Numbered from the stretch's first letter, positions 2,809-48,877 are shown. The stretch is DNA of 64,000 bases from an uncultured Candidatus Bathyarchaeia archaeon (GCA_964529745.1 CAZGZR010000001.1:5590-69589); one strand, 5' to 3'. Notes: generated by a model from the sequence alone, not told the origin. Translations and numbers: made by a program.

Positions 2809-4065
2809 ATGCCATACATGGAAACTGATACTGTTTACGATGGCCTAGAGAGATGCAGCCGATGCCTCTTACCAGACAGCTTTCCCGGTATCAGTTTCGA
2901 CGAGGACGGCGTGTGCAACTACTGCCACGATCAGCCACCATTCGAGGAGCTCGGCGAGGAAGCCTTCACCGAGCTGTTGGACCAATACCGGGGCAAGGGC
3001 GACGAGTATGATTGCATTGCCCCGATCAGCGGAGGCAGGGATAGCGCATACGTTTTGCACCAGCTGGTGACCAGGTACGACATGCGGGTGCTGGCGCTAA
3101 CGGTTGACAGTGGGTTCATAACGGATGAGGCTAACAGGAATATAGAGCAGGTTACTGGCAAGCTGAGCGTCGACCACGTCTGGCTAAGAGATGAAGCCCA
3201 GATAAGCGCGGCCAGGCGGAACGCGGAGATAAAGTTCAATGGGTGGCTCAAGGCCCCCTCCATTCACAACATCGTGCCTGTGCTCAACAGCGGCGACAAG
3301 CTCATGAACCTACGGATGTTCAGATACGCTTCGGAACACGGCATCCCCCTTCTACTGGGCGGGAACGTCGTGGGGACAAGCACTTACGAGCACGGCAACG
3401 CTCGGACGGGGTACCTCGGGGTTTTCCCGGACGACCACGGGGTATACTCCCTAGCCGACAAGCTGAGACTCATACTGTATTATGGTTGGGACTTCCTGGC
3501 TAACACGTACAACTGGCAACCCTCCATATTCAAGGAGTACCTCACAGGGGCGGCTGTCTACTTCTTCGACCGAGTCTTCAAGCCAAGCAGCGTGGACCTG
3601 GTGGGGTTCTACGACTATGTTCCCTGGAACGAGGAGAAGATCGTGTCAACGATAACAGGAGAGCTGGGTTGGAGGGGGGCAGACGACACCACGACCACGT
3701 GGCGTATAGACGACTCGGCCTACGCCGTCATCAATTACCTCTACTTCTACCTCGCCGGCATCGACGAGCACGTGGAGCTGTACAGCAAGATGATCAGGGC
3801 AGGCCAGATAACTAGGGAGGAGGCGTACCGTCGATGCCACACCGACTCCCGGCCCAGGATACCCAGCTTAGAGAAAGAGTTCAAGAACCTCGGGGTCACG
3901 GAGATAGAGGTCCATTGCGCACTTGATGAATACCGTCCCGCGTTCATTAGAAAACACCTGAAAGGAACAAGTTTCGAGAGATGCATGTCCTCATACTCGC
4001 CCAGTACTATCCACCAGACCTCGGTGGAAGCAGCACCAGAGCCTATAACGTCGCCCGCGGACTAA
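2809..4065 (+). CDS. N-acetyl sugar amidotransferase (WbuX family, PP-loop ATP pyrophosphatase)
   Basis: 418 aa. N-terminal Cys-x2-Cys...Cys-x2-Cys zinc ribbon. PP-loop SGGRDS. WbuX-family members convert 2-acetamido sugars to acetamidino sugars. 3' end overlaps the next gene by 85 nt in another frame. Confidence 0.65.
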   Translation: MPYMETDTVYDGLERCSRCLLPDSFPGISFDEDGVCNYCHDQPPFEELGEEAFTELLDQYRGKGDEYDCIAPISGGRDSAYVLHQLVTRYDMRVLALTVDSGFITDEANRNIEQVTGKLSVDHVWLRDEAQISAARRNAEIKFNGWLKAPSIHNIVPVLNSGDKLMNLRMFRYASEHGIPLLLGGNVVGTSTYEHGNARTGYLGVFPDDHGVYSLADKLRLILYYGWDFLANTYNWQPSIFKEYLTGAAVYFFDRVFKPSSVDLVGFYDYVPWNEEKIVSTITGELGWRGADDTTTTWRIDDSAYAVINYLYFYLAGIDEHVELYSKMIRAGQITREEAYRRCHTDSRPRIPSLEKEFKNLGVTEIEVHCALDEYRPAFIRKHLKGTSFERCMSSYSPSTIHQTSVEAAPEPITSPAD

Positions 4066-5189
4066 CGCGGAACGGCGTTAAGGCCACCGTGGTCGCTGCA
4101 TTCCCCCACTACCCCCACGGCGTAGTGCCGATGGAGTATCGGTGGAAGCCTTACCGCCGCGAACAGGTGGACGGCGTCGAAGTCATCAGGACCTTCATGC
4201 TACCCATTGAGTCCAAGGGGCTGCTGTACCGGGTCTTCACCTTCGTGACATTCATCCTCAGCAGCCTCATAGGGCTGCTGCTGGTAAAGGACGTGGACGT
4301 AGTCTGGGCCGCCAACCCAGACATCTTCGCCCTGATCCCAGGAACGCTGTATAAGCGGGTGTACCGCTGCCCACTCATCTTCAACGTTGACGACCTTAGC
4401 ATGGAGGACGTGAACAACCTTGGAATAATGGGGAGCGGAACAGTCGCTTACAGGTTAGCGAAAATACTCTCCACAGCTCTTTACAAAGGGATAGATGCCG
4501 TGACTCCCATTAGCCCCGGGTATTTCAACAGCATAGCTAGGTTCGGCGTACCGCGGGACAAGATGTATTTTATCAGAAGCGGAGTAGATCTCGAAGTCTT
4601 TAAGCAGGAAGAGAGAGGGCTAGGAAACAAGTTTACTGTGGCTTATAGTGGCTCCTTCTCTGTCGCATACGACTTCAATCAAATAATCCGGGCGGCTGAG
4701 CTTCTCAAGGACCAAGGAGTCGAGTTCTGGATTCAGGGGAAAGGTGAACAAGGTCTAGGGATAAGAGAAGCTATCCACGAGAGCAGGCTCTCAAACGTAA
4801 TGCTTTTTGACACAATTCTGACGAGGAAGCAGGTCGCGGAGTTCTTGGGAGAAGCCGACTCGTTGATCCTCCCCTTAAAGGATTTCAATGCACCTTATCC
4901 TGGGATCTCATCCAAACTTTACGAGTATCAAGCGCTTGGTAAACCAATCATCTGCTGCTCCGAGGGCCAGTCAGCTGAATATGTTGAGGAGACACGTTCC
5001 GGCGTCGTCGTGAAGCCAGGTGACCACGAAGCTCTGAAAGAGGCCGTGCTTTTTCTCCGTGATAACCCAGAAGAGGCCTCAAAACAAGGTATGTCTGGCA
5101 GAAGATACGTTGAGGAAAACGTGGGTTTTGTACAAATTGGAGTACAGATGATTGAGGTAGTCAACCAAGTAGTTTCTGGAGGAGTGTAG
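3981..5189 (+). CDS. GT4 family glycosyltransferase
   Basis: 402 aa. N-terminus MHVLILAQYYPPDLGGSS and C-terminal E-x7-E region typical of GT-B / GT4. Confidence 0.75.
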   Translation: MHVLILAQYYPPDLGGSSTRAYNVARGLTRNGVKATVVAAFPHYPHGVVPMEYRWKPYRREQVDGVEVIRTFMLPIESKGLLYRVFTFVTFILSSLIGLLLVKDVDVVWAANPDIFALIPGTLYKRVYRCPLIFNVDDLSMEDVNNLGIMGSGTVAYRLAKILSTALYKGIDAVTPISPGYFNSIARFGVPRDKMYFIRSGVDLEVFKQEERGLGNKFTVAYSGSFSVAYDFNQIIRAAELLKDQGVEFWIQGKGEQGLGIREAIHESRLSNVMLFDTILTRKQVAEFLGEADSLILPLKDFNAPYPGISSKLYEYQALGKPIICCSEGQSAEYVEETRSGVVVKPGDHEALKEAVLFLRDNPEEASKQGMSGRRYVEENVGFVQIGVQMIEVVNQVVSGGV

Positions 5190-5190
5190 C

Positions 5191-6345
5191 GTGAAAATCC
5201 TTCAGATCTGCGACAGAATGGATCCTAACTCCTCGGAAGGAAGAAGAGTAATAACTATCTCAAACGAGCTGTCAAAAAGAGGGTATGACGTTACAGTCGC
5301 TTCAGCCATACGAGCCCAGAAAGAGAAACAGAGAGTCGAATCCTGTTTAGAACACGGCGTAGACATTATCTGGCATAAACCGGCGTTCGGATTCAGTAAC
5401 TTCTCATACTCACCAAGCCTCTACCAGAATATATGTGAGAGAGAGTTTGATTTAATCCACGCACACAGTTACAGGCATTACGGGACTTATATAGGAGCCG
5501 TTCTCGGGAAAAAGAATAAAATCCCTTACATTATGAGTCCATACGGTTCCGTAGGCTATGAATCCACTAGATCCCTTAAACCCCTCTATTGGATGCAAGA
5601 CCTCGTCACCAGAAAACTACCGTTAAAACAGGCGGAAAAAATCCTCGCTAACACAAACTATGAAAAAAACCAGATAATCCGAATAGGCGTCGAGGAGAGT
5701 AAAATCGATGTCGTATACCGTGAGGTAAATACCAGCCTATTTACGAACCGGTGCAACAACTCGTATGATCCAAAAACCGTTCTTTTCGTCGGGCGAATAA
5801 CACCAATTAAAGGCATTGAACTCGTTATCAATGCTCTCAATCTTCTAGACAAAGAAATAACTCTAAAAATAATAGGTCAAGTTGAGAACTACGATTATTT
5901 TAAACGCCTTGAAAACTTGGTTAGACATTACAATCTTCAAGATAGAGTAAACTTCCTCGGTTCAGTGACGCATGAAGAACTCCCTGAACACTATTCCTCT
6001 GCCTTAACCTTGGTTCTTTCTTCCCTTTACGAGAATCTGGGAGGAGTCCTCTTAGAAGCACAAGCGTGCGCCTGCCCCGTTATAACCACTGCAACCGGAG
6101 GCACGGCAGAAGTCCTGGAGAATGGGAAAACCGGGTTCTTGTTGTCTTCGAGATCGCCAAAAGAAATTTCTGAAGCGATCAATCTATTGGCCAATGATCT
6201 ATCGCTAAGAGATCGAATGGGGGTAGAGGCCAGAAGGTTCGTAGAATCAAAGTTCTCAGTTGAACAATACATCGATAGAATCATTTGCTCATATGGAAGC
6301 GCGTTAACTCCATCTATCCACAAGAAAGAGTGTGTTTCTTCATGA
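5191..6345 (+). CDS. GT4 family glycosyltransferase
   Basis: 384 aa. Contains LLEAQACACPVITTATGGTAEVLENGKTGFL, a GT4 donor-binding motif. Starts 2 nt after the previous stop. Confidence 0.75.
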   Translation: MKILQICDRMDPNSSEGRRVITISNELSKRGYDVTVASAIRAQKEKQRVESCLEHGVDIIWHKPAFGFSNFSYSPSLYQNICEREFDLIHAHSYRHYGTYIGAVLGKKNKIPYIMSPYGSVGYESTRSLKPLYWMQDLVTRKLPLKQAEKILANTNYEKNQIIRIGVEESKIDVVYREVNTSLFTNRCNNSYDPKTVLFVGRITPIKGIELVINALNLLDKEITLKIIGQVENYDYFKRLENLVRHYNLQDRVNFLGSVTHEELPEHYSSALTLVLSSLYENLGGVLLEAQACACPVITTATGGTAEVLENGKTGFLLSSRSPKEISEAINLLANDLSLRDRMGVEARRFVESKFSVEQYIDRIICSYGSALTPSIHKKECVSS

Positions 6346-7403
6346 ATATCCTATTGTTGACTTTCAAGACAGATCGGGGAAACGCTTTAGCAGATGCATT
6401 GAATAAGATCGGGTATAATGTATCGGTTGATGAAATAGGTAAGAAAAAGTTATCGATAATCAGGAACCTATACCGCGTGGTATTCTCATATTTTAAGCAT
6501 CATGGGAAATATGATTTGGTAATTACCGAATGTTTTGACTATAACGGTATGCTTGCATTATTATTATCATTTTTTGAGGACACTCCCTACATTATATATG
6601 TGAAAGGGTTTTCACCCGATGATGCTAAAGAGAAATCAGGCAAGTTAACAAGGTTTCTTGATGAGAAATTAAACCATATGATATTTTCAAAAGCAAGTGC
6701 CATTGCATATATTAGTAATCACCTGAAACAGAAATACGAAGAGCATTTCGCAAAAAAACAAAAAGACGAATATTTAAGCGTACCATCAAAGGTAATACAT
6801 CATTCCATAGACGAATCATATTTTAAAAATGAGAAACGTAAAAGATCAGGAAACAGAGTGCTTTATGTTGGTAATCTTGATTTTAAAGGGAAAGCCGATG
6901 GGGCTGTTTTCCTATTAAATATGATGAAAAGCCGCGATGAAACTGAAAGTTATTATCTTTCTATAGTTGGCGGAGGCTCATATTTACCATTTATACAAAG
7001 TTTAGCCAAGGAATATGGACTAAGAAACGTGAAATTTCACGGCTATATAACTAAAAAGGAACTTCAAGCACTTTATAGAGACTCTTCTTTGTTTGTATAT
7101 CCATCTTTTCAAGATGCTTTTCCCACAGTAGTTATGGAGGCCCAGGCGATGGGGCTTCCAGCCATAGTTACTGATACATCAGGCGCAAAAGAGGTTATAA
7201 TCGATGGAAAAACAGGCTACGTGGTTGAAGCTGAGCCAGATGTATTTCATCATGCTTTATTCAAGCTCATTGAAAATGATGAGTTACTAAAATCCATGTC
7301 TGAAGCCTCAAAAACACATATAAAAAAGAATTTAACATGGGAAAAATCGGCTGAAAAATTTCATGAACTAATTACATCTTGCATTATGGAATCTAGGAGA
7401 TGA
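6342..7403 (+). CDS. GT4 family glycosyltransferase (AT-rich)
   Basis: Start taken at the ATG of MNILLLTF, which overlaps the upstream TGA (ATGA). Contains VMEAQAMGLPAIVTDTSGAKEVIIDGKTGYVV, a GT4 motif. GC drops sharply here. Confidence 0.7.
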   Translation: MNILLLTFKTDRGNALADALNKIGYNVSVDEIGKKKLSIIRNLYRVVFSYFKHHGKYDLVITECFDYNGMLALLLSFFEDTPYIIYVKGFSPDDAKEKSGKLTRFLDEKLNHMIFSKASAIAYISNHLKQKYEEHFAKKQKDEYLSVPSKVIHHSIDESYFKNEKRKRSGNRVLYVGNLDFKGKADGAVFLLNMMKSRDETESYYLSIVGGGSYLPFIQSLAKEYGLRNVKFHGYITKKELQALYRDSSLFVYPSFQDAFPTVVMEAQAMGLPAIVTDTSGAKEVIIDGKTGYVVEAEPDVFHHALFKLIENDELLKSMSEASKTHIKKNLTWEKSAEKFHELITSCIMESRR

Positions 7404-7407
7404 TGAT

Positions 7408-8091
7408 TTGAGATCACCTTTTTTCATTCTCTTTGATTCCCTATACAGAGAAAATGTATATGTTTTTGATTTTATTCAATTTATTACAAGACAACAATAT
7501 TACAACCCAACGGCAGATCTCTGTATCGATGGCTTTCCTCGTTCTGCCAATTCATTTGCCGTAAATTTAGTCCATACCGCTTGTCCAGATTTAAAAATAA
7601 ATCACCATCTGCATTCACCAGTAATAATTAAGAAAGCAGTTCGTGATGAGATCCCCATCTTTATACTTATTAGGAATCCTGAGGATGCGGTTACATCCGA
7701 GTACATCCGTTTAAAATATTCTGAAGAGAAAAACCCCGATGTTAAGTGGTTAATTAATAGATACGTTAAGTATTATAGTATCGTAAAAGTTTACGTTGAG
7801 GACATTTTTATTGTAACTTTTGAAAAAGTCACTCAAACTCCTGTTGAATACCTGAAACACGTTTTCTCAAAGTTGCGTCTTAATAATGAAAGGGATTATC
7901 TTGAAATTGTTGCTGAAACTAAGCTTATGGGAAAATCAAAAATTACGGAAGATATTATCTATACAACATCGATACCTACCAGAGAAAGAGATGACTATAA
8001 GAAGCATGTAAAAAGAAAAATTATGTCAAAACATGATTTTTCTCAAGCTAATCAAATATACCAAACGATTGCTGAACAGTTATCTCAATAA
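7408..8091 (+). CDS. sulfotransferase-like protein
   Basis: 227 aa. DGFPRSANSF resembles the PAPS 5'-phosphosulfate-binding loop. LIRNPEDAVTSEY matches the 3'-phosphate-binding R-x-P-x-D-x-x-V-S-x-Y motif. AT-rich. Confidence 0.5.
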   Translation: MRSPFFILFDSLYRENVYVFDFIQFITRQQYYNPTADLCIDGFPRSANSFAVNLVHTACPDLKINHHLHSPVIIKKAVRDEIPIFILIRNPEDAVTSEYIRLKYSEEKNPDVKWLINRYVKYYSIVKVYVEDIFIVTFEKVTQTPVEYLKHVFSKLRLNNERDYLEIVAETKLMGKSKITEDIIYTTSIPTRERDDYKKHVKRKIMSKHDFSQANQIYQTIAEQLSQ

Positions 8092-8207: not shown

Positions 8208-8885
8208 ATGGGGTTCAAAGTTTTTTACGAACAAAAATATTCGACTAGGAGCGAAAAATTAAACCCCATGAAATTAAAGGCCTTGAGCTATTTCCCATCT
8301 CCACCAAGAAAGATTCTAGATGTAGGGTGTGGGTCAGGGCTCCTCACTCAGCTATTAACTGAGAGAGGCTATGATACAATCGGCATAGACATCTCTGAGA
8401 AAGCCATAGAAAAATGTAGGGAAAAAGGGCTATTGAGTTATCAACAAGATCTGAGTGAAGAACTTCTATTTGAGGATGAAACTTTCGATTGTATTTTAAT
8501 GAGCGAGGTAATTGAACATCTAGTGGATCCTTATTTTGCTCTTCATGAGATTCATAGAGTGCTTAAGAAAAAAGGGATTCTTATTATTACTACCCCAAAT
8601 TCGTCTTTCATTACTAGAAGACTTCGTTATGTATTGGGAAAAACAAGCACGGAAACCCAAAATTTTTCGCATCTACGTTTCTTTAATGTAAGACTACTCA
8701 CTAAAATATTGCATGAGGTAAATTACGATATTCTGGATCTTAAAGGATACTTATTCAATCCCTTCAACCTTAACACAGGGTTCACTTTAGATTTTTTAAA
8801 AAATCTTCTATCTGAAAATTTTATAGTAATAACACAAAAAAGGATAGAAGATAAACCGTACAAATATCCCTTAAATAATGTATGA
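8208..8885 (+). CDS. class I SAM-dependent methyltransferase
   Basis: 225 aa. Motif I ILDVGCGSGLLT, acidic residue after beta-2 (DIS), motif II FDCILMSEVIEH. Confidence 0.75.
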   Translation: MGFKVFYEQKYSTRSEKLNPMKLKALSYFPSPPRKILDVGCGSGLLTQLLTERGYDTIGIDISEKAIEKCREKGLLSYQQDLSEELLFEDETFDCILMSEVIEHLVDPYFALHEIHRVLKKKGILIITTPNSSFITRRLRYVLGKTSTETQNFSHLRFFNVRLLTKILHEVNYDILDLKGYLFNPFNLNTGFTLDFLKNLLSENFIVITQKRIEDKPYKYPLNNV

Positions 8886-8920: not shown

Positions 8921-11860
8921 TTAATCAGTATTTTTTGGAATGCCTAGATATAATCCCTCTAAGTTGGCTTCATTTGACCAAACATAAAATAAATCAGAGA
9001 AATTTTGATTATCCCCAAAATGAACTGATTCAATACTATAATTTTCACCTGGATAATTTGAGTAATTAAATTTCCTAAAAATTCCGATGTTGGGAGTATC
9101 ATTGTTAAAATATATAGATCCAGTTTTCCATGTTTTCTTTAATGTTTTTTCCTCTGAATACAGTCTACATGAGTAATATAGACCATCTTTAAGTTTTTTA
9201 ATGTCTTTGACTAATATTTTAACGATGTTAAGATATTTATATGATTCATCAAATATATCCCAATTTATTTTTTCTTTATTTCCCCATTCTAAACCATTTG
9301 AAGTATTTACGCGAATTATATTATATGATGATTTGCACTCATTAACCATTGTTTCTGTATATATTAAATTAATTCCATTGTTTTGTATCCAGGCTATAGG
9401 AGAATCAGCTGACCAGTATAAACAAGATGTATTTGGTGTAATTATTTCTGTGATATTTGTCCAGTCATCGCCTTCTTTGCTACTCATAGAAATTATAGAA
9501 TTGTCTTTTAATGACTTGCAAAAGAGTATCAAATCATTATCTCTATTTATTACGTAGGGATCATCATAAAGACCTAGAATAATGGGATCTGTAGCTTTAG
9601 TCCAATTTAATCCATTGCTTGAATAAGCGTATCCAAGCCCAATGTGTCTATCGTCGTCTCCTTTGATGGAGTAATAAAACCTATAATGTGGAGAACTTTT
9701 ATTTATGAAAACTAAATTACTAGGATTTATTATCTGTTTTCCATCTGAATCAATTAAGTTAGACATTAGAGATTCTTTTTCCAAGGTAATATTTTCAGCG
9801 TAAATAATGTCGTTTCTATTATAAGGTAGGGAGATACTAAAAACGAGTAAAGAACCATAAATTATTTTTTTACAATACCTATTTAGATAATCTCTAGTCG
9901 GCGATATTTCTCTTTCACTATAGAACCAATCATCTGTAATGCAGTAATGGATTTTATTTATCTCATTCCTAGAATCGGGGACATTTTTTAATAAATCATA
10001 AGGCGTTTTGTTATAGGATTCTAGCATCCATTTCTTTTCGTCTAAAGTATTTATCATCATATTTCTAGGAGCATCTATAAATTCAAAAATATGTGATGTC
10101 CCAATGGGAAAAATAATCTCATTAGATTCTACAGTTTTAATAAATTGTCCAGCGTCTTCTATGTTTGATGAAGAATATGAGCTAGAATATCTGTTATCTC
10201 CTCCTATTCGATTAATTCCAGCATTTATCTGTGGAGCTAATAATAATATTATAAATAAAATTCTTCCATATTCCTTCCATTGCTCTTTCCGAAATTTACC
10301 TAAAACAAGTCCGCTTCCATTTAAAATAAAAATCTCTTTAATAAAAAATGAAGCAAAATAGGTGGCAATCAATGATATGTAAATTATCAGTCTATTAAGA
10401 GGAACTTGGCACCCAATTATTGAGGCAAGAAGGACTGCGGTTATGAATGTCATCAAATATAACACTATACGATTCGTTTCAGTGAAAGCTTTATACGCGA
10501 TACCTAAAAGGCCTGTAAATAAAATTAACCGATTGAACATATGCCATTTTATATAATCAAATTTAGGATTTACACTGAATAAAGAAGGTTTGATAATGGA
10601 TAAAATAAAAATCGTAATTGATAATGTAATAAAAATAGTTGCTAAATAATTATAATTTATATTCATTCGTAGGAGCATACTCCTATTTATTAATATGTAT
10701 ATACCTAAAAATAGAATAAAAATAACTATAACATAAATATACAAGTTTTGGCTTTCTAAAAAAAATAAATTTTTTATAGGATAAATAAAAAATCCATAAA
10801 ACGGTAGTATAAATAAAGACATAACAATTAGCGAAGCGGCGATGTTTTTAATTTTGTAATATCTTTTTTCAATATAATAATTTCCTATTTCTAATGCAAT
10901 TACTGTGAGGTTTATCGCTATGGGCAGCATATGGGAGGTTAAAGAGGATGCCAAAAATAAACCATTTACAAAAATATATGTGTATTTATATTTAAAGTCA
11001 TTTTTCTTTTCTAAAACTATTAAAAGTAGAAAACTTGATAACATTAATATTATTGAAAAGTTTTCCCTAAGCAACATCGCGAATCTTAACCCTGTCCAAG
11101 GATTCATGAGGACGAGGGTTCCTGTTAAAACACCAACCAAAGTCCCGGCTATTCGTTTAAATATGAGATAACTCAAAACGCAGAATAATCCAACAAAGGC
11201 TATTGGTCCGTACCGCATGATTTCTTGACTTTTAAAGCCTGTATATTTTGAAACCATCGTTACAAAATATGGGAACCCAAAGTTCCATAACGATAGATAA
11301 GCTCTAAACTGTTCCACTGATTCGTATGGAGATAAATCAAGTGTCACTAGTCTTCTGGATATTGTGGCTGTTTCCCAAGTGTCCCATCCTAACCAATATT
11401 CTCCAGGGGTTTGACGTGCCACGAAGTATCCTCCTGCAAGAAAAGGGATGAAAGCTGCTAACCAGCTTATTATGAAAGATTTTATCTCGATTTTGTAGTA
11501 AAATCGTGTTTCATAAAATTGGTAAAATAGAAACTCGCAGAAGATCAAGAAGAATGATGTCTGTAATAGAAGAAATCTTGTAACTTGATCAAAAAGAAGG
11601 GTGAGTAATATATATGTCCAGAGTAACAGAAGGGTACTCAACACAACATTTATGATTATAAACTCATCAAAGTTAAGATCCAATTCATTTTTTAAGATTG
11701 CACTTAGGTAGAAGCCGGGGATTATTATGAGAAAAAGAAGAGAGAAAAACTTGTAACTCATAGTATTTAGGTTAATAACCGATGAATAAATCCAGAAAAA
11801 AAATGATGCAAGTAAGGGCATATAATTAATTTTTTTATTAAATAGCCCTTGGTAATTCAT
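8921..11860 (-). CDS. large polytopic membrane protein (GT-C-like N-terminal domain, about 13 or more TM) fused to a C-terminal Asp-box/BNR-type beta-propeller; function unknown
   Basis: 979 aa, AT-rich. N-terminal approx. 500 aa are strongly hydrophobic, with a conserved acidic loop LKNELDLNFDEF and YWLGWDTWE. C-terminal approx. 400 aa contain repeated S-x-N-G-L-x-W blades (YSSNGLNW, NTSNGLEW). Paralog of 12878-15829. Confidence 0.6.
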   Translation of the reverse strand: MNYQGLFNKKINYMPLLASFFFWIYSSVINLNTMSYKFFSLLFLIIIPGFYLSAILKNELDLNFDEFIIINVVLSTLLLLWTYILLTLLFDQVTRFLLLQTSFFLIFCEFLFYQFYETRFYYKIEIKSFIISWLAAFIPFLAGGYFVARQTPGEYWLGWDTWETATISRRLVTLDLSPYESVEQFRAYLSLWNFGFPYFVTMVSKYTGFKSQEIMRYGPIAFVGLFCVLSYLIFKRIAGTLVGVLTGTLVLMNPWTGLRFAMLLRENFSIILMLSSFLLLIVLEKKNDFKYKYTYIFVNGLFLASSLTSHMLPIAINLTVIALEIGNYYIEKRYYKIKNIAASLIVMSLFILPFYGFFIYPIKNLFFLESQNLYIYVIVIFILFLGIYILINRSMLLRMNINYNYLATIFITLSITIFILSIIKPSLFSVNPKFDYIKWHMFNRLILFTGLLGIAYKAFTETNRIVLYLMTFITAVLLASIIGCQVPLNRLIIYISLIATYFASFFIKEIFILNGSGLVLGKFRKEQWKEYGRILFIILLLAPQINAGINRIGGDNRYSSSYSSSNIEDAGQFIKTVESNEIIFPIGTSHIFEFIDAPRNMMINTLDEKKWMLESYNKTPYDLLKNVPDSRNEINKIHYCITDDWFYSEREISPTRDYLNRYCKKIIYGSLLVFSISLPYNRNDIIYAENITLEKESLMSNLIDSDGKQIINPSNLVFINKSSPHYRFYYSIKGDDDRHIGLGYAYSSNGLNWTKATDPIILGLYDDPYVINRDNDLILFCKSLKDNSIISMSSKEGDDWTNITEIITPNTSCLYWSADSPIAWIQNNGINLIYTETMVNECKSSYNIIRVNTSNGLEWGNKEKINWDIFDESYKYLNIVKILVKDIKKLKDGLYYSCRLYSEEKTLKKTWKTGSIYFNNDTPNIGIFRKFNYSNYPGENYSIESVHFGDNQNFSDLFYVWSNEANLEGLYLGIPKNTD

Positions 11861-11995
11861 ACTTTACTAGCTAAGTTTTGAGGGATATTTATCAGATGTT
11901 GAGTAAAAAAATAATACATACCATTCCGGTTGATTTGTAACCGTTGTTCTCAAGTCTACTTCATGAATCCTTTCATGAACATATAACTTAAATGA

Positions 11996-12679
11996 TCATT
12001 TAACGGCTTTAGCCATAATATGGTAATAATAGGGAAATACGCCTAAAATGTGTTTTTCGGGGAACATCTTAACAAATTCAATCCCCGCCTCCTCAAGGAA
12101 TTTTTTCATTTCATTCACCGAGAAATATCTTCTATATGCATATACATCCTCTCCATCACCCGTTTTCCCAGCTGTCTTAATGTAATGTTCTTTTCTACCC
12201 AACATTTCTAGTATCTTTATGGGAATCTCTGAGAAGCATTGAGTTGTAGTAAGAGCAACAAACCCACCGGGCTTTACCACTCGCCCCATCTCGGAAATAA
12301 TTTCTTTGATAACTTCCTCATTTTTTATATGAATGATTACTTGCTCAGCAAAAGCTACATCGCAGGAATTGTCGGGCAATGAGAGGTCCTGGCCTAGCTC
12401 GTTTAAAAGGTCTACTCTGGAATCTTTTACCATGAAATGGTGATATAATTCACTTGGTTCGACAGCATAGTATTTGGATACACCATATTCCTCTAATATG
12501 GCTCGTGCTATTCTTCCTACTCCAGCACCTACATCCAGAACAACATCTCCGTCTTTTATAGGAAGTATTTTAGCGATATCTCGTGCATACGCTCTGCTTT
12601 TCTCTGACATCAATATCTTTGCGTAATCATCAGCAATGCTATCGTGCATCTCCACGCTGTCAAGTAATTTCATATCCAA
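11996..12679 (-). CDS. class I SAM-dependent methyltransferase
   Basis: 227 aa. Motif I VLDVGAGVGRIA, then VEPSEL, then post-II PGGFV. Confidence 0.7.
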   Translation of the reverse strand: MDMKLLDSVEMHDSIADDYAKILMSEKSRAYARDIAKILPIKDGDVVLDVGAGVGRIARAILEEYGVSKYYAVEPSELYHHFMVKDSRVDLLNELGQDLSLPDNSCDVAFAEQVIIHIKNEEVIKEIISEMGRVVKPGGFVALTTTQCFSEIPIKILEMLGRKEHYIKTAGKTGDGEDVYAYRRYFSVNEMKKFLEEAGIEFVKMFPEKHILGVFPYYYHIMAKAVK

Positions 12680-12877
12680 CTAGATGGAGTTTGATTTTAA
12701 GAGTTAAATAATCATGTAGGTACAATCTAAAACACTCAATGATTAACCCTCAATATGGTCGAAAAAATCCGTCTCCACTATCAAAGAGATCTAATAACTG
12801 GTGATATAATATCCAGGTAACTACAGTCTACAAATATTTGTATTCGCTGGTGTTGTGGTGTAATCTCCATTCACTTA

Positions 12878-15829
12878 TTGATATATACATTTGGATGGAA
12901 CTTGGAAATAATGTTGCGGTCGAGAGGCTCGATTAGCAGATTTACGCCATTTTTTTTCTCGCTCATCCTTACTCTTTACTCATACATTGGAATTAAATTT
13001 TGGTTTGTAGACTCACTTCTTATCCCCGTCTTTGTTTTCGCGGCCCCAGGCTTCCTGGTGAGCTACCGGCTTTCTCATGAACTCGATTTGTCTTTGGATG
13101 AGTTTCTAGTTATCACAATAATATTCAGCGGAGTAGTCCTGATGTTTCTCTACCTTGCTCTTACCTGTATGTTTGCCTATGTAGCTCCATACATGGTTTT
13201 TGGGGGCTTGACTTGCTTCCTCTTCGTATTGGGGTTTCTGGTTGACGTTTCAACAGAGACTTTAGGAACCATCGATGATGAGACGATTAAAGGCTTGGGG
13301 GGGCTACTAGCGAGTTATTTTTTAGGTTTTTGGGTTATTTCCTGTTATATGCCCCTGCAATATTGGAGGGGTCCCGATGGGTGGGAGAACATCAATGTTT
13401 TCAGGAAGATTTCTGAGATGGGGTTATCTCCGGTAGAAGCATACAATTTTTTCAGGTGTTACGTTAAGATTCCGAATCCTGGCTTCTATTACTATTTCTC
13501 GGTTTTACATCTGATGACAGGGTTCTCTGTTGAGTCCATCATGCGTTATGGCGGTATGATACAGACGGGGGTGTTCGTCTCGCTGGCTTATATAACCTTC
13601 AAACGAGTAAACGGCCTCCTGTCAGGGTTGTCAGGTGTTTTTCTCCTCGTTCTCAATCCTTACTTTAACCACAGATTCATGGTTCTTCTACGCGAAGAGT
13701 TCAGCCTCTTCTTTTTTTTTACCGGTTTGTTCCTTTATATCTGCAACAGAGAATCTGGAGATTGGTCTTATCCTCTTAGAATAATGGTCATGGGTAGCTT
13801 GTTGGCATCCTGTATGGTATCTCACCCCATGGTACCTGTTTTTTTTATCGGGTTATTGGTATGCCGGATGGGCTATTCTTTCATCGAGAGAAAATTTGAT
13901 GAGATAACCGTCGAATTATACTCTCTCGTCCTCAGCCTGATACTTGTATTACCTTTTCTAAACATAATGTTAGATCCACTTGGCATTTTCATGAATAAAA
14001 TTTCATTGCCATACTTGTTGATTGGCTCATGTTTAGTGATCGTAGTAATCTCATCAATGTATCTTATTTATTATCAAAAAATAGATGTTGAACGTCTTAT
14101 TCCTACGGTACAAAAAGTTATGATCGTCCTCATGTTTTTCCTCCCATTACTAGGAGTAACGGTCAAACCTAATCTAGGCGAATCGTATTCTTTTGGATTC
14201 ATCGATATCGAAGATTTCTCAAAAATTCTTGTCCCCTTGTCAGTAGCTGGGTATTTCCTTCATTCTCTAGGGAGAATGGAGAAAAATATTGTTGGATTGA
14301 ATCTCATCACAGTCATATTGATAGCCTTAAGCTATCTTAGGATCCCCTTGCCTCTGGATCGACTCTCTATTCCACTTATTTGGCTCATGAGTTTCTATGC
14401 TTCCTATCTAGTAAATGCTTCAAAGCAGGCGTCTTTCCATGAAACAGCTTCAATTACACAAGATTCTGAGCTAGTTTCTAACTTGTTAAAACATCGAATG
14501 ACACTGGTTTTCATCTTGATGATATTCGCCGGAGGCGTGCTCGAGCTATCAACTATTACCAGGAAGTTGTCTACCTTCGATGCGTCGTGTGTCGAAGATA
14601 CCAATCTGTTTGTCTCAGAGTTGGAGCCAGGGGAGCTTGTTTTTCCTTACGGTACCGCCGATCATATGCTGTACTATGCAAATATACCGCAGGATAACAT
14701 CGTCGCAGATCTGGAGGTTAAAAATAAGCTTGCACTACTGCTGGACCAAGATTCTATATACGAGATCTCGGAGCTGGTTCAGGAAAGTTATCCTGAAGTC
14801 AACTCCTTGATCTTCTACGTAGATAGCTGGTATGAAAATGATCTCCGCGAAAAACCTTTCTGCGATCTATTGGAGTTATACTTCGAGAAAGCTGTTAGGG
14901 GATGTTTCTCGTCTTACGGGTTAGAAATACCCTTTACCGTCGAGAAACTAAAGTTAAACCAGGTTAGATACATCAAGGATTTCCCCGAAGACCCTCTCTT
15001 CGGCTCACATTGCAATATCACTGCAACAAGTAACATTCTGACCCTACCCGATGAAGAGGCATCTTATAAGTTCATGTTTCTAAGTGCGGATGCTGATGGA
15101 ACAAAGTATATTGGTTTAGCCTCCTCAACAAACGGTCTAGATTGGAACATAGATTACGAGGATAAACTAGGCTATGAACTTGAATCTATAGGCCTCATCG
15201 AACGTGACGATCGATACTATCTATATGCAGGTACTTCCTCCAAGGTCCAAGTTGTTCGGCTTGATAGCAATGACTTACGCAATTGGGGCAACTATACCAT
15301 AGTCATTGATTCTTCATCGAGGGATGAACTGGTTTTCATAGAGTCTCCCCTGGTATGGCAGGAAGAAAGCGGTTTTCGAATGTTATGGTGGGAAACCACG
15401 ATAGGAGACTCCATGATGAATGGAGTCCATTACGCCACCTCGATAGACGGTGCTAATTGGGTTATAGAACATAGGTCTCTGGAATGGGCCTTATTGGATT
15501 CCAGATACAGAGCGAATGAATATGACAAGATACTTCCCTATGACTTGATGCGAATAGGTGAAGGCATTATCATTCTGGCAAGAATGCACAAGGCTGACGG
15601 GTTTTCCCCAAAGAAATGGGTTACGGGCTCAATTACTCTTGAAGATGTAACCTCTAAGGCAGCTGAGGTGCAGGGTTTTGTATACAAGGATCATATTGAA
15701 TCTGAAATGGACTCGATTCATGTGATAAGAGACCTCGACGGTGTTAACCTGAGGTTCATTTACCTTGAATATTGTAGAGGTCGAGTCTACATCGGGGCTG
15801 CCTCCGACCATTATGGTGTGGAAAAATGA
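12878..15829 (+). CDS. large polytopic membrane protein with C-terminal Asp-box beta-propeller (paralog of 8921-11860)
   Basis: 983 aa. Same N-terminal motifs (LSHELDLSLDEF, YWRGPDGWE). C-terminal blades GLASSTNGLDW, HYATSIDGANW (S-x-D-G-x-x-W Asp-box). Confidence 0.6.
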   Translation: MIYTFGWNLEIMLRSRGSISRFTPFFFSLILTLYSYIGIKFWFVDSLLIPVFVFAAPGFLVSYRLSHELDLSLDEFLVITIIFSGVVLMFLYLALTCMFAYVAPYMVFGGLTCFLFVLGFLVDVSTETLGTIDDETIKGLGGLLASYFLGFWVISCYMPLQYWRGPDGWENINVFRKISEMGLSPVEAYNFFRCYVKIPNPGFYYYFSVLHLMTGFSVESIMRYGGMIQTGVFVSLAYITFKRVNGLLSGLSGVFLLVLNPYFNHRFMVLLREEFSLFFFFTGLFLYICNRESGDWSYPLRIMVMGSLLASCMVSHPMVPVFFIGLLVCRMGYSFIERKFDEITVELYSLVLSLILVLPFLNIMLDPLGIFMNKISLPYLLIGSCLVIVVISSMYLIYYQKIDVERLIPTVQKVMIVLMFFLPLLGVTVKPNLGESYSFGFIDIEDFSKILVPLSVAGYFLHSLGRMEKNIVGLNLITVILIALSYLRIPLPLDRLSIPLIWLMSFYASYLVNASKQASFHETASITQDSELVSNLLKHRMTLVFILMIFAGGVLELSTITRKLSTFDASCVEDTNLFVSELEPGELVFPYGTADHMLYYANIPQDNIVADLEVKNKLALLLDQDSIYEISELVQESYPEVNSLIFYVDSWYENDLREKPFCDLLELYFEKAVRGCFSSYGLEIPFTVEKLKLNQVRYIKDFPEDPLFGSHCNITATSNILTLPDEEASYKFMFLSADADGTKYIGLASSTNGLDWNIDYEDKLGYELESIGLIERDDRYYLYAGTSSKVQVVRLDSNDLRNWGNYTIVIDSSSRDELVFIESPLVWQEESGFRMLWWETTIGDSMMNGVHYATSIDGANWVIEHRSLEWALLDSRYRANEYDKILPYDLMRIGEGIIILARMHKADGFSPKKWVTGSITLEDVTSKAAEVQGFVYKDHIESEMDSIHVIRDLDGVNLRFIYLEYCRGRVYIGAASDHYGVEK

Positions 15830-33911: not shown

Positions 33912-34076
33912 ACTAAAAATAGCCACAGCCTCTCTAATTATTTCTGTAGAGAAGACGCTTTAGATCGGCGTCCACACACAATATTACATTTAAATCTCTC
34001 TGAATCCTAGAAAATTAGGGATCATACACTCTCACCCAGTTGGGCACTGTTCGGCGCCTCCTTATGTTAATTCTTC

Positions 34077-34088
34077 AGCTTTATTATT
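34077..34088 (+). promoter_or_regulatory. TATA-like element AGCTTTATTATT about 25-30 nt upstream of the MEDLRG ATG (leaderless transcript likely)
   Basis: The same element occurs at the same spacing upstream of the paralog at 37166-37177. Confidence 0.4.
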
Positions 34089-34109
34089 CAAGATACCATG
34101 GATGCTATC

Positions 34110-34394
34110 ATGGAGGATCTACGAGGGAAGGCTCTCAAGGCCTATGAGGCGCTCTTCGACAACCAGGAAACCGTTGAGATCGATGGCATGGTCTATCACC
34201 TTGAGCACACTTCGATCCAGGAGCTGCGTAAATTCAGGGTGGAAGGCTATAACTTCATCGAGCAGAATCCGGACAAGGGCAGCAGGTGGGGTGAGTTGGC
34301 GAAAGAGGGGCACCAGATTATGTGGGTGATGAGAGGCAGAAAGTATCTCGCCCAGGTACGTGATGGTGAGTTCTTTGATTTCAGGAAACAATAG
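34110..34394 (+). CDS. small conserved hypothetical protein, duplicated family (copy 1)
   Basis: MEDLRGKALKAYEALF...VEIDGMVYHLEHTS...FIEQNPDKGSRWGELAKEGHQIMWVMRGRKYLAQVRDGEFFDF. About 70% identical to 37199-37486. Start chosen at the second ATG because of TATA spacing and paralog alignment. Confidence 0.5.
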   Translation: MEDLRGKALKAYEALFDNQETVEIDGMVYHLEHTSIQELRKFRVEGYNFIEQNPDKGSRWGELAKEGHQIMWVMRGRKYLAQVRDGEFFDFRKQ

Positions 34395-34511
34395 AAAGTG
34401 TTTTTTCGAAAATATGCTAATAATGTTAAATTTTAATCTCTAAATTTTACTAAGAAATCGTAATCAGGCTAATTACCGGTCTGAAAATCCTTTTTAAATA
34501 TAAAGGGGTGT

Positions 34512-35165
34512 TTATTTTGAGAACTTTTTTTCTATTATGTATATTTTATCTGATTGACGATCTATTTGCTTCGAATTAACGTATAGATAAGCGTATATTG
34601 TATATTGGCCTTCAATCTGCGGTATGAAAGTGATTACATCCTTTTCTATACCTACCTTTTGTATGGTTATTTTCTCTTGTCCTAGATTGTTGAAGACCCC
34701 CTCTGGGGTATTTACCCAATAATCAATATTTATTGATGAATTAGGTTTCAAGCCTTTAATGGTTGTCTCAACTTTTATTGATTGACCCACTTCTTGTTTC
34801 GCTTCTCCAAGTATTAGCAGGTTTATGATCTCTGCTGCTTCTTCGCCTACCTTTATTCTTAGTGCCGGTGATTCCCATGAGAATCTCTCATCGTCCATGT
34901 ACCCAAAGATTCTGATGTATAGTCTGGCGGAACCATGTGCTGATATGCTAAAGGGTACGATGATGGTCTCTTTTGGGTCGATGTTTTTTACCCATTTTAG
35001 AGAGTCTTTGACGTTTATGAGCCGTTGGTCTAGTGAGGCTAGTCCAACTTCGAGTGTTTCAATTTCTTTGTTTCCATGGTTTTTGATATTCAGGTTTATC
35101 CGACTCTTTCCCTTTTTTATTTCCATGGGAGCGAGTTTAACGGATATCGGTAATCTTCTCATCAT
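34512..35165 (-). CDS. two-domain beta-rich protein (paralog B), function unknown
   Basis: 217 aa, AT-rich. Aligns over its full length with 35570-36205 (shared ...LY..I.GY.....W.SP...I.VG and ...G.....I.F.P...G...I.AYLY...). Confidence 0.5.
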   Translation of the reverse strand: MMRRLPISVKLAPMEIKKGKSRINLNIKNHGNKEIETLEVGLASLDQRLINVKDSLKWVKNIDPKETIIVPFSISAHGSARLYIRIFGYMDDERFSWESPALRIKVGEEAAEIINLLILGEAKQEVGQSIKVETTIKGLKPNSSINIDYWVNTPEGVFNNLGQEKITIQKVGIEKDVITFIPQIEGQYTIYAYLYVNSKQIDRQSDKIYIIEKKFSK

Positions 35166-35485
35166 CCTTGTTTTTCCACCTTTTTTTCTTGGGTAAGGTT
35201 GAGTGAGTTTGCTATTTTCTCTCTATCGAAGCCTATTATCTTGGTATCGTCTACAACGATTATAGGAAAGGCGATGCTTATCCCTCCTTGGGGGATGTCC
35301 CAGCCGAAGATGCCGGCTGCATCCTGTCTGTGTTCTGGATCGGCTTTATCTATGTCGAGGTACCTGAACTTTACATCCCTTTCTTTTAGGTACGCTTTTG
35401 CTTCATCACAGGCGTGGCAATAGCTCAAAGAGTAAACTGAGATTTCTTTATCGTCTTTTTCTCCATCAACGGTTACCCAGCTCAT
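35162..35485 (-). CDS. glutaredoxin-like protein (CxxC = CHAC)
   Basis: 107 aa. VYSLSYCHACDEAKAYLKERDVKFRYLDID, a thioredoxin-fold Grx/NrdH-like motif. Confidence 0.7.
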   Translation of the reverse strand: MSWVTVDGEKDDKEISVYSLSYCHACDEAKAYLKERDVKFRYLDIDKADPEHRQDAAGIFGWDIPQGGISIAFPIIVVDDTKIIGFDREKIANSLNLTQEKKVEKQG

Positions 35486-35569
35486 ACCAGATTTTAAGAA
35501 GGGTGTTTTAAAAATCTAAAGCCATGGTTTTTATATCTTTAATTTTTTTACCAAAAAAAAATTGGGGAT

Positions 35570-36205
35570 TTATTCTACCCAGATGACGTCGGAGTCGGTT
35601 CCTATGTAACGATGGTCGTCGTAGAGATAGGCGTGGATCTCGTGTCTTCCCGACTCGTTAGGTGTGAACTCTATGGAGCTTTTCTTTACTTCTCCGGGGC
35701 CTAGTTTCTCGATCTTCGTTTCTCCCAGTTTCTCGAAGCTTGACGGTGAGTCGTGCCAGAAGGTTATCAAGAAGTTATCTCCGCCGGTTACCCCCTCCAC
35801 AACGGCTTCTGCTTCGAGGGTTTCTCCGCCGACGGCGTATGGGTGGGTTAGCGCGAATACGTTTCTGAGCTTCGCGGTGGTTATGCCTACGTAGATCTCG
35901 ATGTTCGGTGACGTCCAGAAGAAGTAGATTCCTTCTCGGTAGCCTGATACCGTTACATAGAGCTTTGTGGTTTGGTTTGCGTAGATCTGGAAGGGGAAGA
36001 ATCGTTCGTCTCCGGGTTTGATCTCGGAGGTGTATGTTCCTGTTCCCCAGACGTCGATGAAGGTCTGGTTCCTGGAGTACAGCTTTATGTCTAGTTGGGT
36101 TAGCGTGTCGGTGCTCACGTTTTTTAGGTGTACGGATACCCAGTGTGTTCCTGTCTTGAGTTCACTTGGGGTGATGTCAAATTCGAAGGGTCTCTTGATC
36201 CTCAT
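35570..36205 (-). CDS. two-domain beta-rich protein (paralog A), function unknown
   Basis: 211 aa. No signal peptide. Paralog of 34512-35165. Confidence 0.5.
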   Translation of the reverse strand: MRIKRPFEFDITPSELKTGTHWVSVHLKNVSTDTLTQLDIKLYSRNQTFIDVWGTGTYTSEIKPGDERFFPFQIYANQTTKLYVTVSGYREGIYFFWTSPNIEIYVGITTAKLRNVFALTHPYAVGGETLEAEAVVEGVTGGDNFLITFWHDSPSSFEKLGETKIEKLGPGEVKKSSIEFTPNESGRHEIHAYLYDDHRYIGTDSDVIWVE

Positions 36206-41608: not shown

Positions 41609-42562
41609 ATGAACACCGAGGCAAACTACAAGACCCGGGACCTGGAACCCGGAAACCTGGCGCTGTTCTTCGTGACCGCGTTCGCCTGGACCTGGGCCTT
41701 CTGGTCACCCTTCATACTCGGCATACTCAGACTCCCAATGGGAACCGGCACACCCAACGTAGACCTCGGCGAGATGGGACTGATCCTGCCCATCATCCTC
41801 GTCAGCCCCTTCGGGCCAACCATCGCCGCCTTCGTGACCAGCTACCTGAGCGAAGGCAGGGAAGGCCCCCGCAGGCTCTGGAGACGATTCAGAGACTGTA
41901 AACCCTCGAAAACATGGCTCATCATAACCCTGGCCTTTTACCCAGCCATCTTCCTATTGATCAGGGTATCCTCGGCGACGATCTTCAACGTCCCCCAACC
42001 CACACCGGCATGGACAGACAACCCGCTAATCATACTCGCGCCCCTCGCCGCGAGCGTGCTCCACGGGGGCCTGAGCGAGGAGTTCGGCTGGAGAGGATAC
42101 GCCTTACCCAGACTCCAGTCCCGGCTCAACGCGACACAAGCCAGCATGGCCCTGGGCCTCATGGAGGGCCTATGGCACGTGCCCCTCGTCTTCTGGGTGG
42201 GCGACGCCCGCTACGGCATGTCGATCCCGTTGCTGATACTGTGGCAGACGATAGCGACGTTCTACAGGACCTGGATATACAACAACACCGAGGGAAGCCT
42301 CCTGGCCGCGGTGCTCTTCCACGCCATGGGTAACACGGCCAGCGACATCGCGCCAATCAACATTCCCTCCATCCCCTGGCTTCCCAGATACAAGTTCGTG
42401 CCTCTACCTCTGTTGATTGTGTTCAGCGCGATCGTCCTGGTGATCGTGGGTGTTTACGGGCCCGAGGACATGATAAGAAAAAATAAATCTGACTCAAAAG
42501 GCACAAAAGAGAACTACAACTCTGTTTTGTTGGTTCAGCTGATGGCGGCAAGAACCCCGTGA
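41609..42562 (+). CDS. CPBP family intramembrane metalloprotease (CAAX protease / Abi)
   Basis: 317 aa. Motifs EEFGWRGY, FxxxH (LWHVPLVF) and HAMGN. Confidence 0.75.
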   Translation: MNTEANYKTRDLEPGNLALFFVTAFAWTWAFWSPFILGILRLPMGTGTPNVDLGEMGLILPIILVSPFGPTIAAFVTSYLSEGREGPRRLWRRFRDCKPSKTWLIITLAFYPAIFLLIRVSSATIFNVPQPTPAWTDNPLIILAPLAASVLHGGLSEEFGWRGYALPRLQSRLNATQASMALGLMEGLWHVPLVFWVGDARYGMSIPLLILWQTIATFYRTWIYNNTEGSLLAAVLFHAMGNTASDIAPINIPSIPWLPRYKFVPLPLLIVFSAIVLVIVGVYGPEDMIRKNKSDSKGTKENYNSVLLVQLMAARTP

Positions 42563-42662
42563 AGACAAGGTTATAAGCCCCTGGATTAAATGGGTCCGAC
42601 GTTCGCAGAGCTACACCACGAGGTAAGCTCCACGACTCGCCTCCTGCAGTCGAGGCGTCTCC

Positions 42663-43205: not shown

Positions 43206-43254
43206 ATCATTACAATATGATAAACTTAAATAAAAAAAGAACGACTGTTCTTAA

Positions 43255-48873: not shown

Positions 48874-48877
48874 CGGC

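Follow-up and report, generated by a model that had tools for sequence, protein, structure and literature searches.

STT3, AglB and PglB are taken as the signature enzymes of N-glycosylation, and their WWDYG motif is used to recognize them. In true oligosaccharyltransferases (OSTs), WWDYG binds the Ser/Thr at position +2 of the acceptor, and the Glu of a second motif, TIXE or SVSE, binds both the acceptor Asn and the metal. Here we describe two paralogous genes from an uncultured Candidatus Bathyarchaeia archaeon (GCA_964529745.1 CAZGZR010000001.1:5590-69589) whose products are, by alignment, STT3/AglB derivatives in which the donor- and metal-side residues are kept and both peptide-acceptor motifs are lost, and in which the membrane core is followed by a predicted five-bladed β-propeller. 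The genes occupy positions 8921 to 15829 of the 64,000-nucleotide stretch of DNA that was analyzed (hereafter, the window). The literature searched contained no description of a WWDYG-less STT3-like protein fused to a propeller of the GH130 class, in agreement with an initial annotation of the window that had proposed a previously undescribed fusion architecture.

Paralog A (8921..11860, minus strand) and paralog B (12878..15829, plus strand, from a TTG start) are open reading frames (ORFs) of 979 and 983 aa, found where that annotation had placed them. The NCBI gene models are slightly shorter, with A starting 13 codons later (966 aa) and B 11 codons later (972 aa), at an ATG at 12911. By BLASTP, A and B align along their whole length with 25% identity over 929 residues (E 4e-74), within the range of roughly 25-30% estimated at first; this similarity is far above the chance level and indicates that A and B are full-length paralogs. 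Scans of both proteins against Pfam and NCBIfam gave no match, even at E 1.

Relationship of the membrane core to STT3 and AglB

The family had been described initially as not recognizable, a statement that did not survive profile-profile alignment with hhalign. An alignment of 47 diverse members was compared with a set of 58 complete AglB/STT3 ORFs, collected from metagenome contigs that had been scanned for a degenerate WWDYG DNA pattern. The two matched at 98.4% (E 4.4e-15) over 416 columns, pairing B residues 148-602 with AglB residues 12-465; against a reversed AglB/STT3 control the match fell to 1.1% (E 0.049). Against the same 58 sequences, the A clade alone matched at 94.4% (E 8.8e-8), the B clade alone at 82.5% (E 9.8e-6) and the two clades together at 96.5% (E 7.1e-10), and the 47-member family matched a single AglB at 89.7% (E 1.8e-6). 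Additionally, the remote member P0013 scores above the cut-off of the Pfam STT3 family (PF02516; 25.8 versus 24.5 bits, in the N-terminal model), a gathering threshold that A and B fall below and that P0013 alone passes, and NCBI names a full-length member, P0017, as STT3. These comparisons indicate that A and B are highly diverged STT3/AglB derivatives that form a distinct subfamily, consistent with the GT-C-like character first attributed to the membrane domain. We do not file them as AglB because they lack WWDYG and the TIXE Glu and score below the Pfam threshold. The full name given to P0017 (MCB2171308.1, locus L133), a propeller fusion, is 'dolichyl-diphosphooligosaccharide--protein glycosyltransferase subunit STT3', though the family is devoid of WWDYG; automatic naming may over-assign N-OST function to this protein.

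Two other assignments of the membrane domain were rejected: an ArnT-type GT-C enzyme (GT83), on the hhalign result for the 47-member family against E. coli ArnT (0.18%, E 0.33), and a transporter, given the homology to STT3 and the conservation of residues of catalytic type. Sub-threshold matches to PMT-type enzymes (GT39, Pfam PMT_2) were seen in 2 of the 47 members, with a best E of 0.004.

The residues that stand out in the family are those of the putative active site. Only D167, R266, E273 and R495 (B numbering) are invariant across the 47 members, and G202, R272 and H316 are nearly so. The key residues of B (D167, R266, R272, E273, H316 and R495) have as their counterparts in A D160, R259, R265, E266, H310 and R490, which lie in the motifs YWLGWD160TWE, NPWTGLR259FAMLLR265E266, SH310 and VPLNR490L. 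The family motif G-x-D-P-W, which contains D160 of A and D167 of B, aligns with the loop-1 Asp of AglB ('e-D-P-y') and of STT3 ('DP[WYF]'). In loop 2, a conserved Arg of AglB is matched by R266, and the acidic residue that opens its D-x-D/E motif by E273; the resulting Arg-x5-Arg-Glu element (R266-x5-R272-E273) is invariant or nearly so and has just one acidic residue, compared with D-x-D/E/H. R495 (R490 in A) aligns with the conserved Arg of AglB that precedes the penultimate transmembrane helix, TM12. The equivalent Arg of STT3/PglB contacts the phosphate of the lipid-linked donor. A His is retained as well and faces outward (H310 in A, H316 in B).

The acceptor side is different. A motif search of A and B for WWDYG was empty, as had been noted initially, and no clade has a WWD at the aligned position, where V-x-S-W-W-D-Y-G-Y-w-I in AglB is matched in the family by I-V-x-P-......-L-L-x-Y. 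This position reads PYGTADH in B ('LVFPYGTADH') and PIG-TSH in A ('IIFPIG') and is variable across the family, with only the flanking β-strand and the LL.Y motif retained. The loop-5 Glu of TIXE/SVSE also lacks a counterpart, in that no clade has a conserved acidic column between the helices equivalent to TM9 and TM10.

The membrane part of each protein comprises about 555 aa and about 17 helices, larger than the 480 or so residues first allotted to it. It consists of 4 extra N-terminal helices followed by the 13-helix STT3-like core. The core spans residues 132-552 of A (10205..11467, minus strand), as delimited by hhalign and the conserved motifs, and residues 139-558 of B (13292..14551, plus strand), as delimited by hhalign; the match begins at B residue 148 (about 141 in A), at the helix aligned with AglB TM1. 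At its other end the match runs through the last helix into the soluble domain and stops just past the WWDYG position. The C-terminal soluble region measures about 420 aa, close to the 400 or so residues initially assigned to a single propeller, and is divided into two domains, an α/β domain of about 130 aa and a propeller of only about 285 aa. The extracellular α/β domain covers residues 553-695 of A (9776..10204, minus strand; hhalign, the secondary structure of the B model and the family alignment) and residues 559-700 of B (14552..14977, plus strand; hhalign, with a pLDDT of 70-88 in the AlphaFold2 (AF2) model). On the evidence of the profile alignment, it is homologous to the start of the external domain of AglB.

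The remaining N-terminal module, residues 1-131 of A (11468..11860, minus strand; from alignment with B) and 1-138 of B (12878..13291, plus strand; about 4 membrane helices, from AF2), falls outside the STT3/AglB match, as do the first 140 or so residues (about 4 helices) of the family as a whole. Four of the 47 members, all remote, match profile positions of about 3-138 of Pfam DUF1616 (PF07760) with their first 130 or so residues (best E 2e-11); in the Pfam scan A and B themselves had no DUF1616 match. DUF1616 is an uncharacterized archaeal membrane-protein family, and it is its N-terminal part that the remote relatives match; the Haloferax DUF1616 protein HVO_2173 is an AglB-dependent glycoprotein (PMC8241124). 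Both acidic motifs that the initial annotation had pointed out are present, ELDL[SN][LF]DEF at A59/B68 (ELDLNFDEF in A, ELDLSLDEF in B) and YW.G.D.WE at A155/B162. The likeness to GT-C catalytic loops that was drawn for both holds for YW.G.D.WE, which aligns with the STT3 loop-1 Asp, and not for ELDL..DEF. The latter sits within the N-terminal extension, in a short loop that probably faces the cytoplasm, and is weakly conserved family-wide; it is unlikely to be catalytic and was rejected as a catalytic loop on its position outside the homologous core and its poor conservation.

With 4 + 13 helices and the orientation of STT3, the N-terminus would lie inside and the catalytic loop, H316, R495 and the 420-aa C-terminal region outside. 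Lys and Arg, read from the sequence, cluster in the predicted inside loops of the 17-helix map, whose helices come from the AF2 model. Homology-based topology and charge distribution thus agree with the extracytoplasmic propeller that had been proposed.

The C-terminal propeller

The AF2 model of B residues 560-983, calculated from 11 sequences (pLDDT 69.8, pTM 0.62), contains the α/β domain and then 20 strands arranged as five four-stranded blades. The propeller corresponds to residues 701-983 of B (14978..15826, plus strand; 5 blades of 4 strands each) and, by homology, to residues 696-979 of A (8924..9775, minus strand). Its propeller-only sequence relatives carry Pfam GH130, GH43, GH32N and GINT1_N, and profile matches to GH130 proteins in the PDB are weak (E 0.07-2.6). 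The model and these relatives point to a five-bladed propeller of the GH130/GH43/GH32 (glycoside hydrolase) fold class, membership of any single GH family not being demonstrable. The blades had first been described as Asp-box or BNR-like; the repeated S-x-[DN]-G-x-x-W motif on which that description relied is present, and the motif is one residue shorter than an Asp-box. A six-bladed Asp-box/BNR propeller of the sialidase type was rejected on the fold evidence of five blades. The pattern S-x-[DNE]-[GL]-x-x-W occurs 3 times in B and twice in A, where a third copy (SNGLEW) is visible in the aligned blade.

All fusion clades keep S-N in blade 1, [ED]-[SA]-P in blade 3 and W-x-T-G-S in blade 5; in A, these and the blade-2 motif read PSN (blade 1), YDDPYV (blade 2), DSP (blade 3) and WKTGSI (blade 5). 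The catalytic Asp of GH130 enzymes sits in an E-D-P-R motif. The position that aligns weakly with this Asp is occupied by D or N in members of the A clade, by S in those of the B clade and by E, S or N in the rest, and blade 1 has Asn where GH43 and GH32 enzymes have their catalytic Asp. Given these residue patterns, we lean towards a carbohydrate-binding role for the propeller rather than catalysis.

Distribution and genomic context

A word-indexed search of 5.8 billion proteins recovered nine relatives of B (P0001-P0009, 50-100% identity), three close relatives of A (P0010-P0012) and the distant P0013 (830 aa, E 8e-34), which has no C-terminal domain; orthologs in independent metagenomes are 50-87% identical. 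A further word-indexed homolog search with the alignment as query added nothing. When a HMMER profile of the family was run against 1.84 billion cluster representatives, 604 matched at E<=1e-3 and 44 at E<=1e-30. Full-length fusions account for about 20 representatives (850-1007 aa), and a second set of 640-700 aa has the membrane domain and the first soluble domain only. Most of the other matches listed cover only profile positions of about 700-890, the propeller, in many architectures, one of them 5844 aa long with 25 matched stretches. This last protein, P0045, and others (P0078, P0079, P0081, P0084 and P0129), of 1.8-5.8 thousand residues, each match the propeller profile (about 710-855) 8-25 times and appear from these matches to be long arrays of GH130/GH43-like propeller units. 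The family itself amounts to several dozen clusters at 50% identity.

The phyletic spread of the family is read from a few NCBI names. Members that are named come from metagenome-assembled genomes (MAGs) labeled Candidatus Hodarchaeales (an Asgard order), Candidatus Bathyarchaeota (including two adjacent genes), 'archaeon' (STT3) and 'Deltaproteobacteria'; scans of GTDB species-representative genomes gave no relative of the family. The bacterial label belongs to the contig of P0005 (MBW1736733.1; locus L136), from the MAG 'Deltaproteobacteria bacterium'. On this contig, FnlABC, three GT4s and a paralog pair are clustered as in the archaeal loci. The label is probably due to mis-binning; the contig is 15.5 kb long and has no archaeal marker gene.

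The window's locus is laid out as two divergent units. A class I SAM-dependent methyltransferase of 227 aa (11996..12679, minus strand; Pfam Methyltransf_11/25/23, E 1e-12 to 1e-13) lies upstream of A on the same strand, and this methyltransferase-A unit faces away from B across an AT-rich spacer of 198 bp (12680..12877), apparent from the sequence and ORF layout and presumed to be a divergent promoter region. The arrangement first described, two paralogs diverging around a methyltransferase, stands insofar as the methyltransferase is between A and B, with the refinement that it is co-stranded with A. In loci L004-L006 the equivalent slot is also filled by a methyltransferase. GC content is 29.8% in A, 39.3% in the methyltransferase and 41.9% in B, versus 55-62% in the flanks, and the surrounding genes are of glycan biosynthesis, which bears out the AT-rich glycan island initially proposed.

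On the far side of A, Pfam and NCBIfam identify, on the minus strand, a WbcJ/FnlB-like reductase (200-1354) and an FnlA-like UDP-GlcNAc 4,6-dehydratase/5-epimerase (1365-2444), which would together belong to a UDP-6-deoxy-L-hexosamine pathway, and, on the plus strand, a WbuX-like N-acetyl-sugar amidotransferase (2809-4065), three GT4 glycosyltransferases (3981-5189, 5191-6345 and 6285-7403) and a second SAM methyltransferase (8208-8885). The WbuX-like ORF overlaps the first GT4 ORF by 85 nt, and with the longest TTG/GTG starts there is a 61-nt overlap between the second GT4 ORF and the third; probably the true starts are further downstream, or the genes are translationally coupled. Between the third GT4 and the second methyltransferase lies an ORF for a 227-aa protein (7408-8091, plus strand) with a faint Sulfotransfer_1 match (E 0.024). 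An ORF of 210-230 aa is kept at the equivalent position in L004-L006 and L133, and the product may be a sulfotransferase or another glycan-modifying enzyme.

Largely the same genes accompany family members in 9 other distinct loci from independent metagenomes and MAGs, among them L001, L004-L006, L131-L133 and L136. Further genes are seen in some of the loci: one for a GT2, which in two loci is paired with DUF2304, one for a Wzx-like flippase, in a single locus, and others for a sulfatase-family protein or a radical SAM enzyme. Each of the ten distinct loci that were inspected has its STT3-like gene or genes at the end of a cluster of GT4, GT2, methyltransferase and sugar-nucleotide genes, and no canonical AglB, Wzy or WaaL was seen in the inspected stretches. 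As judged from gene content, the layout is that of agl or O-antigen clusters, with the STT3-like genes in place of the final outward-facing enzyme.

Paired paralogs are present in the window and in L001, L004-L006, L131, L132 and L136, and single copies in L133, L137 and the short-form loci L002 and L134. The two members of a pair differ in their conservation. The B orthologs of the window, L001, L004 and L136 share 51-61% identity, whereas the partner-slot proteins have 69% identity to A in L004 and 27 or 25% in the other two loci, L001 and L136, whose partner proteins are 34% identical to each other. One slot is therefore conserved and the other exchanged among deep variants. Together with the GC content of A (29.8%, versus 41.9% for B), this looks like allelic replacement or horizontal exchange in a surface-glycan locus.

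The short forms in L002 (P0013) and L134 (P0031), which have no propeller, adjoin a GT2 and a small DUF2304 membrane protein, and L134 also has a Wzx/MurJ-like flippase; by analogy, this layout resembles bacterial three-component extracytoplasmic glycosylation systems. In both L131 and L132 (Bathyarchaeota), a conserved block of genes lies downstream of the pair and encodes a transglutaminase-core protein of about 1256 aa with Big and MG4 domains, a UCP019236 protein, a MoxR-type AAA ATPase and a DUF58 protein. In the window, the island is flanked by genes for a PAC2 protein, the transcription factor TFB and HdrA/MvhD-like proteins, from which the host is taken to be an anaerobic archaeon. A run of flavin and iron-sulfur oxidoreductase genes at 44530-51099, among them one for an HdrA-like protein with a fused MvhD/FlpD domain (46717-48873) and one for a GltD-like subunit (49531-51099), is consistent with anaerobic, electron-bifurcating host metabolism. 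GC content also dips at 34001-36000 (0.42) and 42001-44000 (0.47), against a background of 0.52-0.62, and these may be other islands.

Proposed function and comparison with known systems

The reading that we favor, and consider reasonably probable, is that A and B transfer a lipid-linked glycan on the outer face of the membrane to an acceptor other than the N-glycosylation sequon, probably a glycan held by the propeller; the identity of this acceptor is something that we infer throughout. In such a scheme, the cytoplasmic FnlA/B-type and WbuX-like enzymes, the three GT4s and the methyltransferases would build a methylated glycan on dolichol phosphate, probably with FucNAc-type or acetamidino sugars, and the dolichol-linked glycan would then be flipped to the outside. 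There the STT3-like core would use its retained metal- and phosphate-binding site to move the glycan onto the acceptor. A carbohydrate is the most likely candidate for this acceptor, whether the chain being extended or a glycan already fixed to the surface, and the propeller would position it over the active site. As B is conserved between related loci, it may carry out a generic step, such as final attachment, and the partner slot occupied by A may serve a step specific to the glycan structure, such as polymerization or branch addition; the variability of this partner is similar to that of Wzy and the serotype-specific genes of bacterial O-antigen loci. The function that the initial annotation had suggested, a lipid-linked glycan polymerase or transferase coupled to a propeller that binds or trims glycans, would still be plausible. 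A broader and more tentative proposal, which we would not place above the level of a conjecture, is that the STT3 scaffold has been repurposed as a distinct archaeal class in which the donor site is kept and a propeller-held acceptor replaces the sequon, to give either a polymerase and ligase pair, the counterpart of Wzy and WaaL, or an O-linked or sequon-independent oligosaccharyltransferase; under this proposal, the adjacent paralogs might act as a heteromeric machine.

Several observations weigh against transfer to a propeller-held glycan or against parts of the scheme. The loss of WWDYG speaks against Asn-X-Ser/Thr as the acceptor but has no bearing on acceptors elsewhere in proteins, and the alignment in loop 5 is of low confidence, such that a displaced equivalent of the TIXE Glu may exist. 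The propeller may itself be an enzyme, its blade-3 [ED]-[SA]-P and blade-1 S-N being conserved. Searches of PDB sequences with A, with B and with profiles of 13 sequences, of 47 sequences and of the core only found no GT-C protein; they returned weak GH130/GH43 propeller matches and spurious designed helical proteins. The full-length AF2 model (13 sequences) has a pLDDT of 49 and an unusable membrane domain, so that the fold of the STT3-like core rests on profile-profile alignment, not on structure, and Foldseek with this model gave propeller matches only. Structure prediction and fold search, which had been suggested as a check of the initial annotation, thus located the propeller and did not model the membrane domain confidently. 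Finally, neither an initiating transferase nor a flippase is visible in the inspected part of the window's cluster, and L133 and L137 have one copy each, which means that a division of labor between two enzymes is not obligatory.

Among the alternatives, the likeliest is a non-canonical protein OST, which would transfer the lipid-linked glycan to Ser/Thr or to a non-sequon Asn and would use the propeller to recognize the target glycoprotein or its glycans. The scaffold is derived from STT3/AglB with donor-side residues retained, the genes hold the position of AglB in agl clusters, and L131 has an archaellin gene close to its pair. Additionally, a 2018 review describes the archaeal O-glycosylation machinery as unknown and reports an AglB-independent N-glycosylation route in Haloferax volcanii (PMC6098224), although the named family members include none from the haloarchaea, in which these questions were defined. 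We nevertheless consider this explanation rather unlikely: WWDYG and the loop-5 Glu, both of the peptide-binding elements of OSTs, are absent, no replacement peptide-binding feature was identified, and the appended domain is of a carbohydrate-active fold class.

A second alternative shifts catalysis to the propeller, which would act as a GH130-like phosphorylase, a hydrolase or a transglycosylase and trim or remodel glycans at the surface or in the environment, with the STT3-like domain as an inactive anchor or a substrate-presenting pseudoenzyme. The nearest folds and sequence relatives of the propeller are indeed glycoside hydrolases and phosphorylases, the S-N of blade 1 and the [ED]-[SA]-P of blade 3 are conserved, and the A clade has YD[DN]PY at the site of the GH130 E-D-P-R motif. 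Membrane-anchored glycan processing of this kind is, in our view, very improbable, as no positions in the family are better conserved than the putative active-site residues of its membrane domain, a pattern unexpected for a pseudoenzyme, and many members that have no propeller retain the core. The position of the GH130 catalytic Asp varies among D, N, E and S across clades and is S in the B clade, blade 1 has Asn in place of the catalytic Asp of GH43/GH32, and the genomic context is biosynthetic rather than catabolic.

Least plausible, and hardly to be expected, is a three-component system for single-sugar decoration. Dolichol-phosphate-monosaccharide would be made by a GT2 and exported by a small flippase, and the GT-C protein would add its sugar to a finished glycan in the manner of Gtr or ArnT. 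Three-component GT-C systems are a known theme, GT2 and DUF2304 genes adjoin the short forms in L002 and L134 and a GT2 is present in L131-L133 and L137, but the window's cluster, L004 and L136 show neither a GT2 nor a small flippase, the closest family, STT3, transfers oligosaccharides and similarity to ArnT is lacking (0.18%), and the Arg aligned with R495, which binds the donor phosphate(s) in OSTs, does not discriminate between donor types.

If A and B do transfer a lipid-linked glycan to a non-sequon acceptor, they would be candidate genes for the polymerization or attachment of non-N-linked glycans in archaea, for O-glycosylation or for AglB-independent glycosylation (PMC6098224), and the automatic labels 'STT3' and 'hypothetical' on such genes would both be misleading. 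The combination of a conserved gene with a swappable partner in a low-GC island suggests strain-level variation of surface glycans in uncultured archaea, which would bear on recognition by viruses and by partners.

The known systems that A and B recall differ in the part of the proteins to which they compare. Wzy polymerase and WaaL ligase offer an analogy of role only, homology having been neither sought nor found: they too are polytopic outer-face enzymes that act on lipid-linked repeat units and are encoded in variable low-GC islands with one hypervariable gene. GH130 and the rest of the five-bladed class (GH43, GH32, GH68, GH117 and GH62) share with the propeller the S-x-D-G-x-x-W blade motifs, and their Pfam families are found in its relatives; they differ in that their catalytic constellations do not appear to be conserved in A and B, whose propeller is tethered to a membrane transferase and is not a soluble enzyme. 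In plant GINT1 (GT64, with an N-terminal GH130-like domain, PF24793), a related propeller is likewise fused to a glycosyltransferase, to judge by the Pfam description only, although that transferase is of the GT-A type and resides in the Golgi. The mycobacterial EmbA/B/C and AftD proteins are GT-C arabinosyltransferases that depend on polyprenyl-phosphate sugars and have periplasmic carbohydrate-binding domains. They are closest in the principle proposed here, a GT-C core with external carbohydrate-binding domains that hold an acceptor polysaccharide; they are bacterial, their external domain is a β-sandwich of the carbohydrate-binding module (CBM) type, and they would belong to another GT-C family.

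It is with AglB, STT3 and PglB (GT66, PF02516) that the resemblance is most extensive. A and B share with these enzymes a GT-C core of 13 helices and the opening part of the external α/β domain, the loop-1 Asp, the loop-2 Arg and acidic residue, the Arg before TM12 and a place at the end of an agl-like cluster for a lipid-linked glycan. They differ in having neither WWDYG nor a conserved TIXE/SVSE Glu, in their four extra N-terminal helices, in their frequent occurrence as adjacent paralog pairs that score below the Pfam STT3 threshold, and in carrying a five-bladed propeller where AglB has peripheral β-units. An STT3 derivative that dispenses with both acceptor-peptide motifs would show that the OST scaffold can be adapted to acceptors of other kinds.

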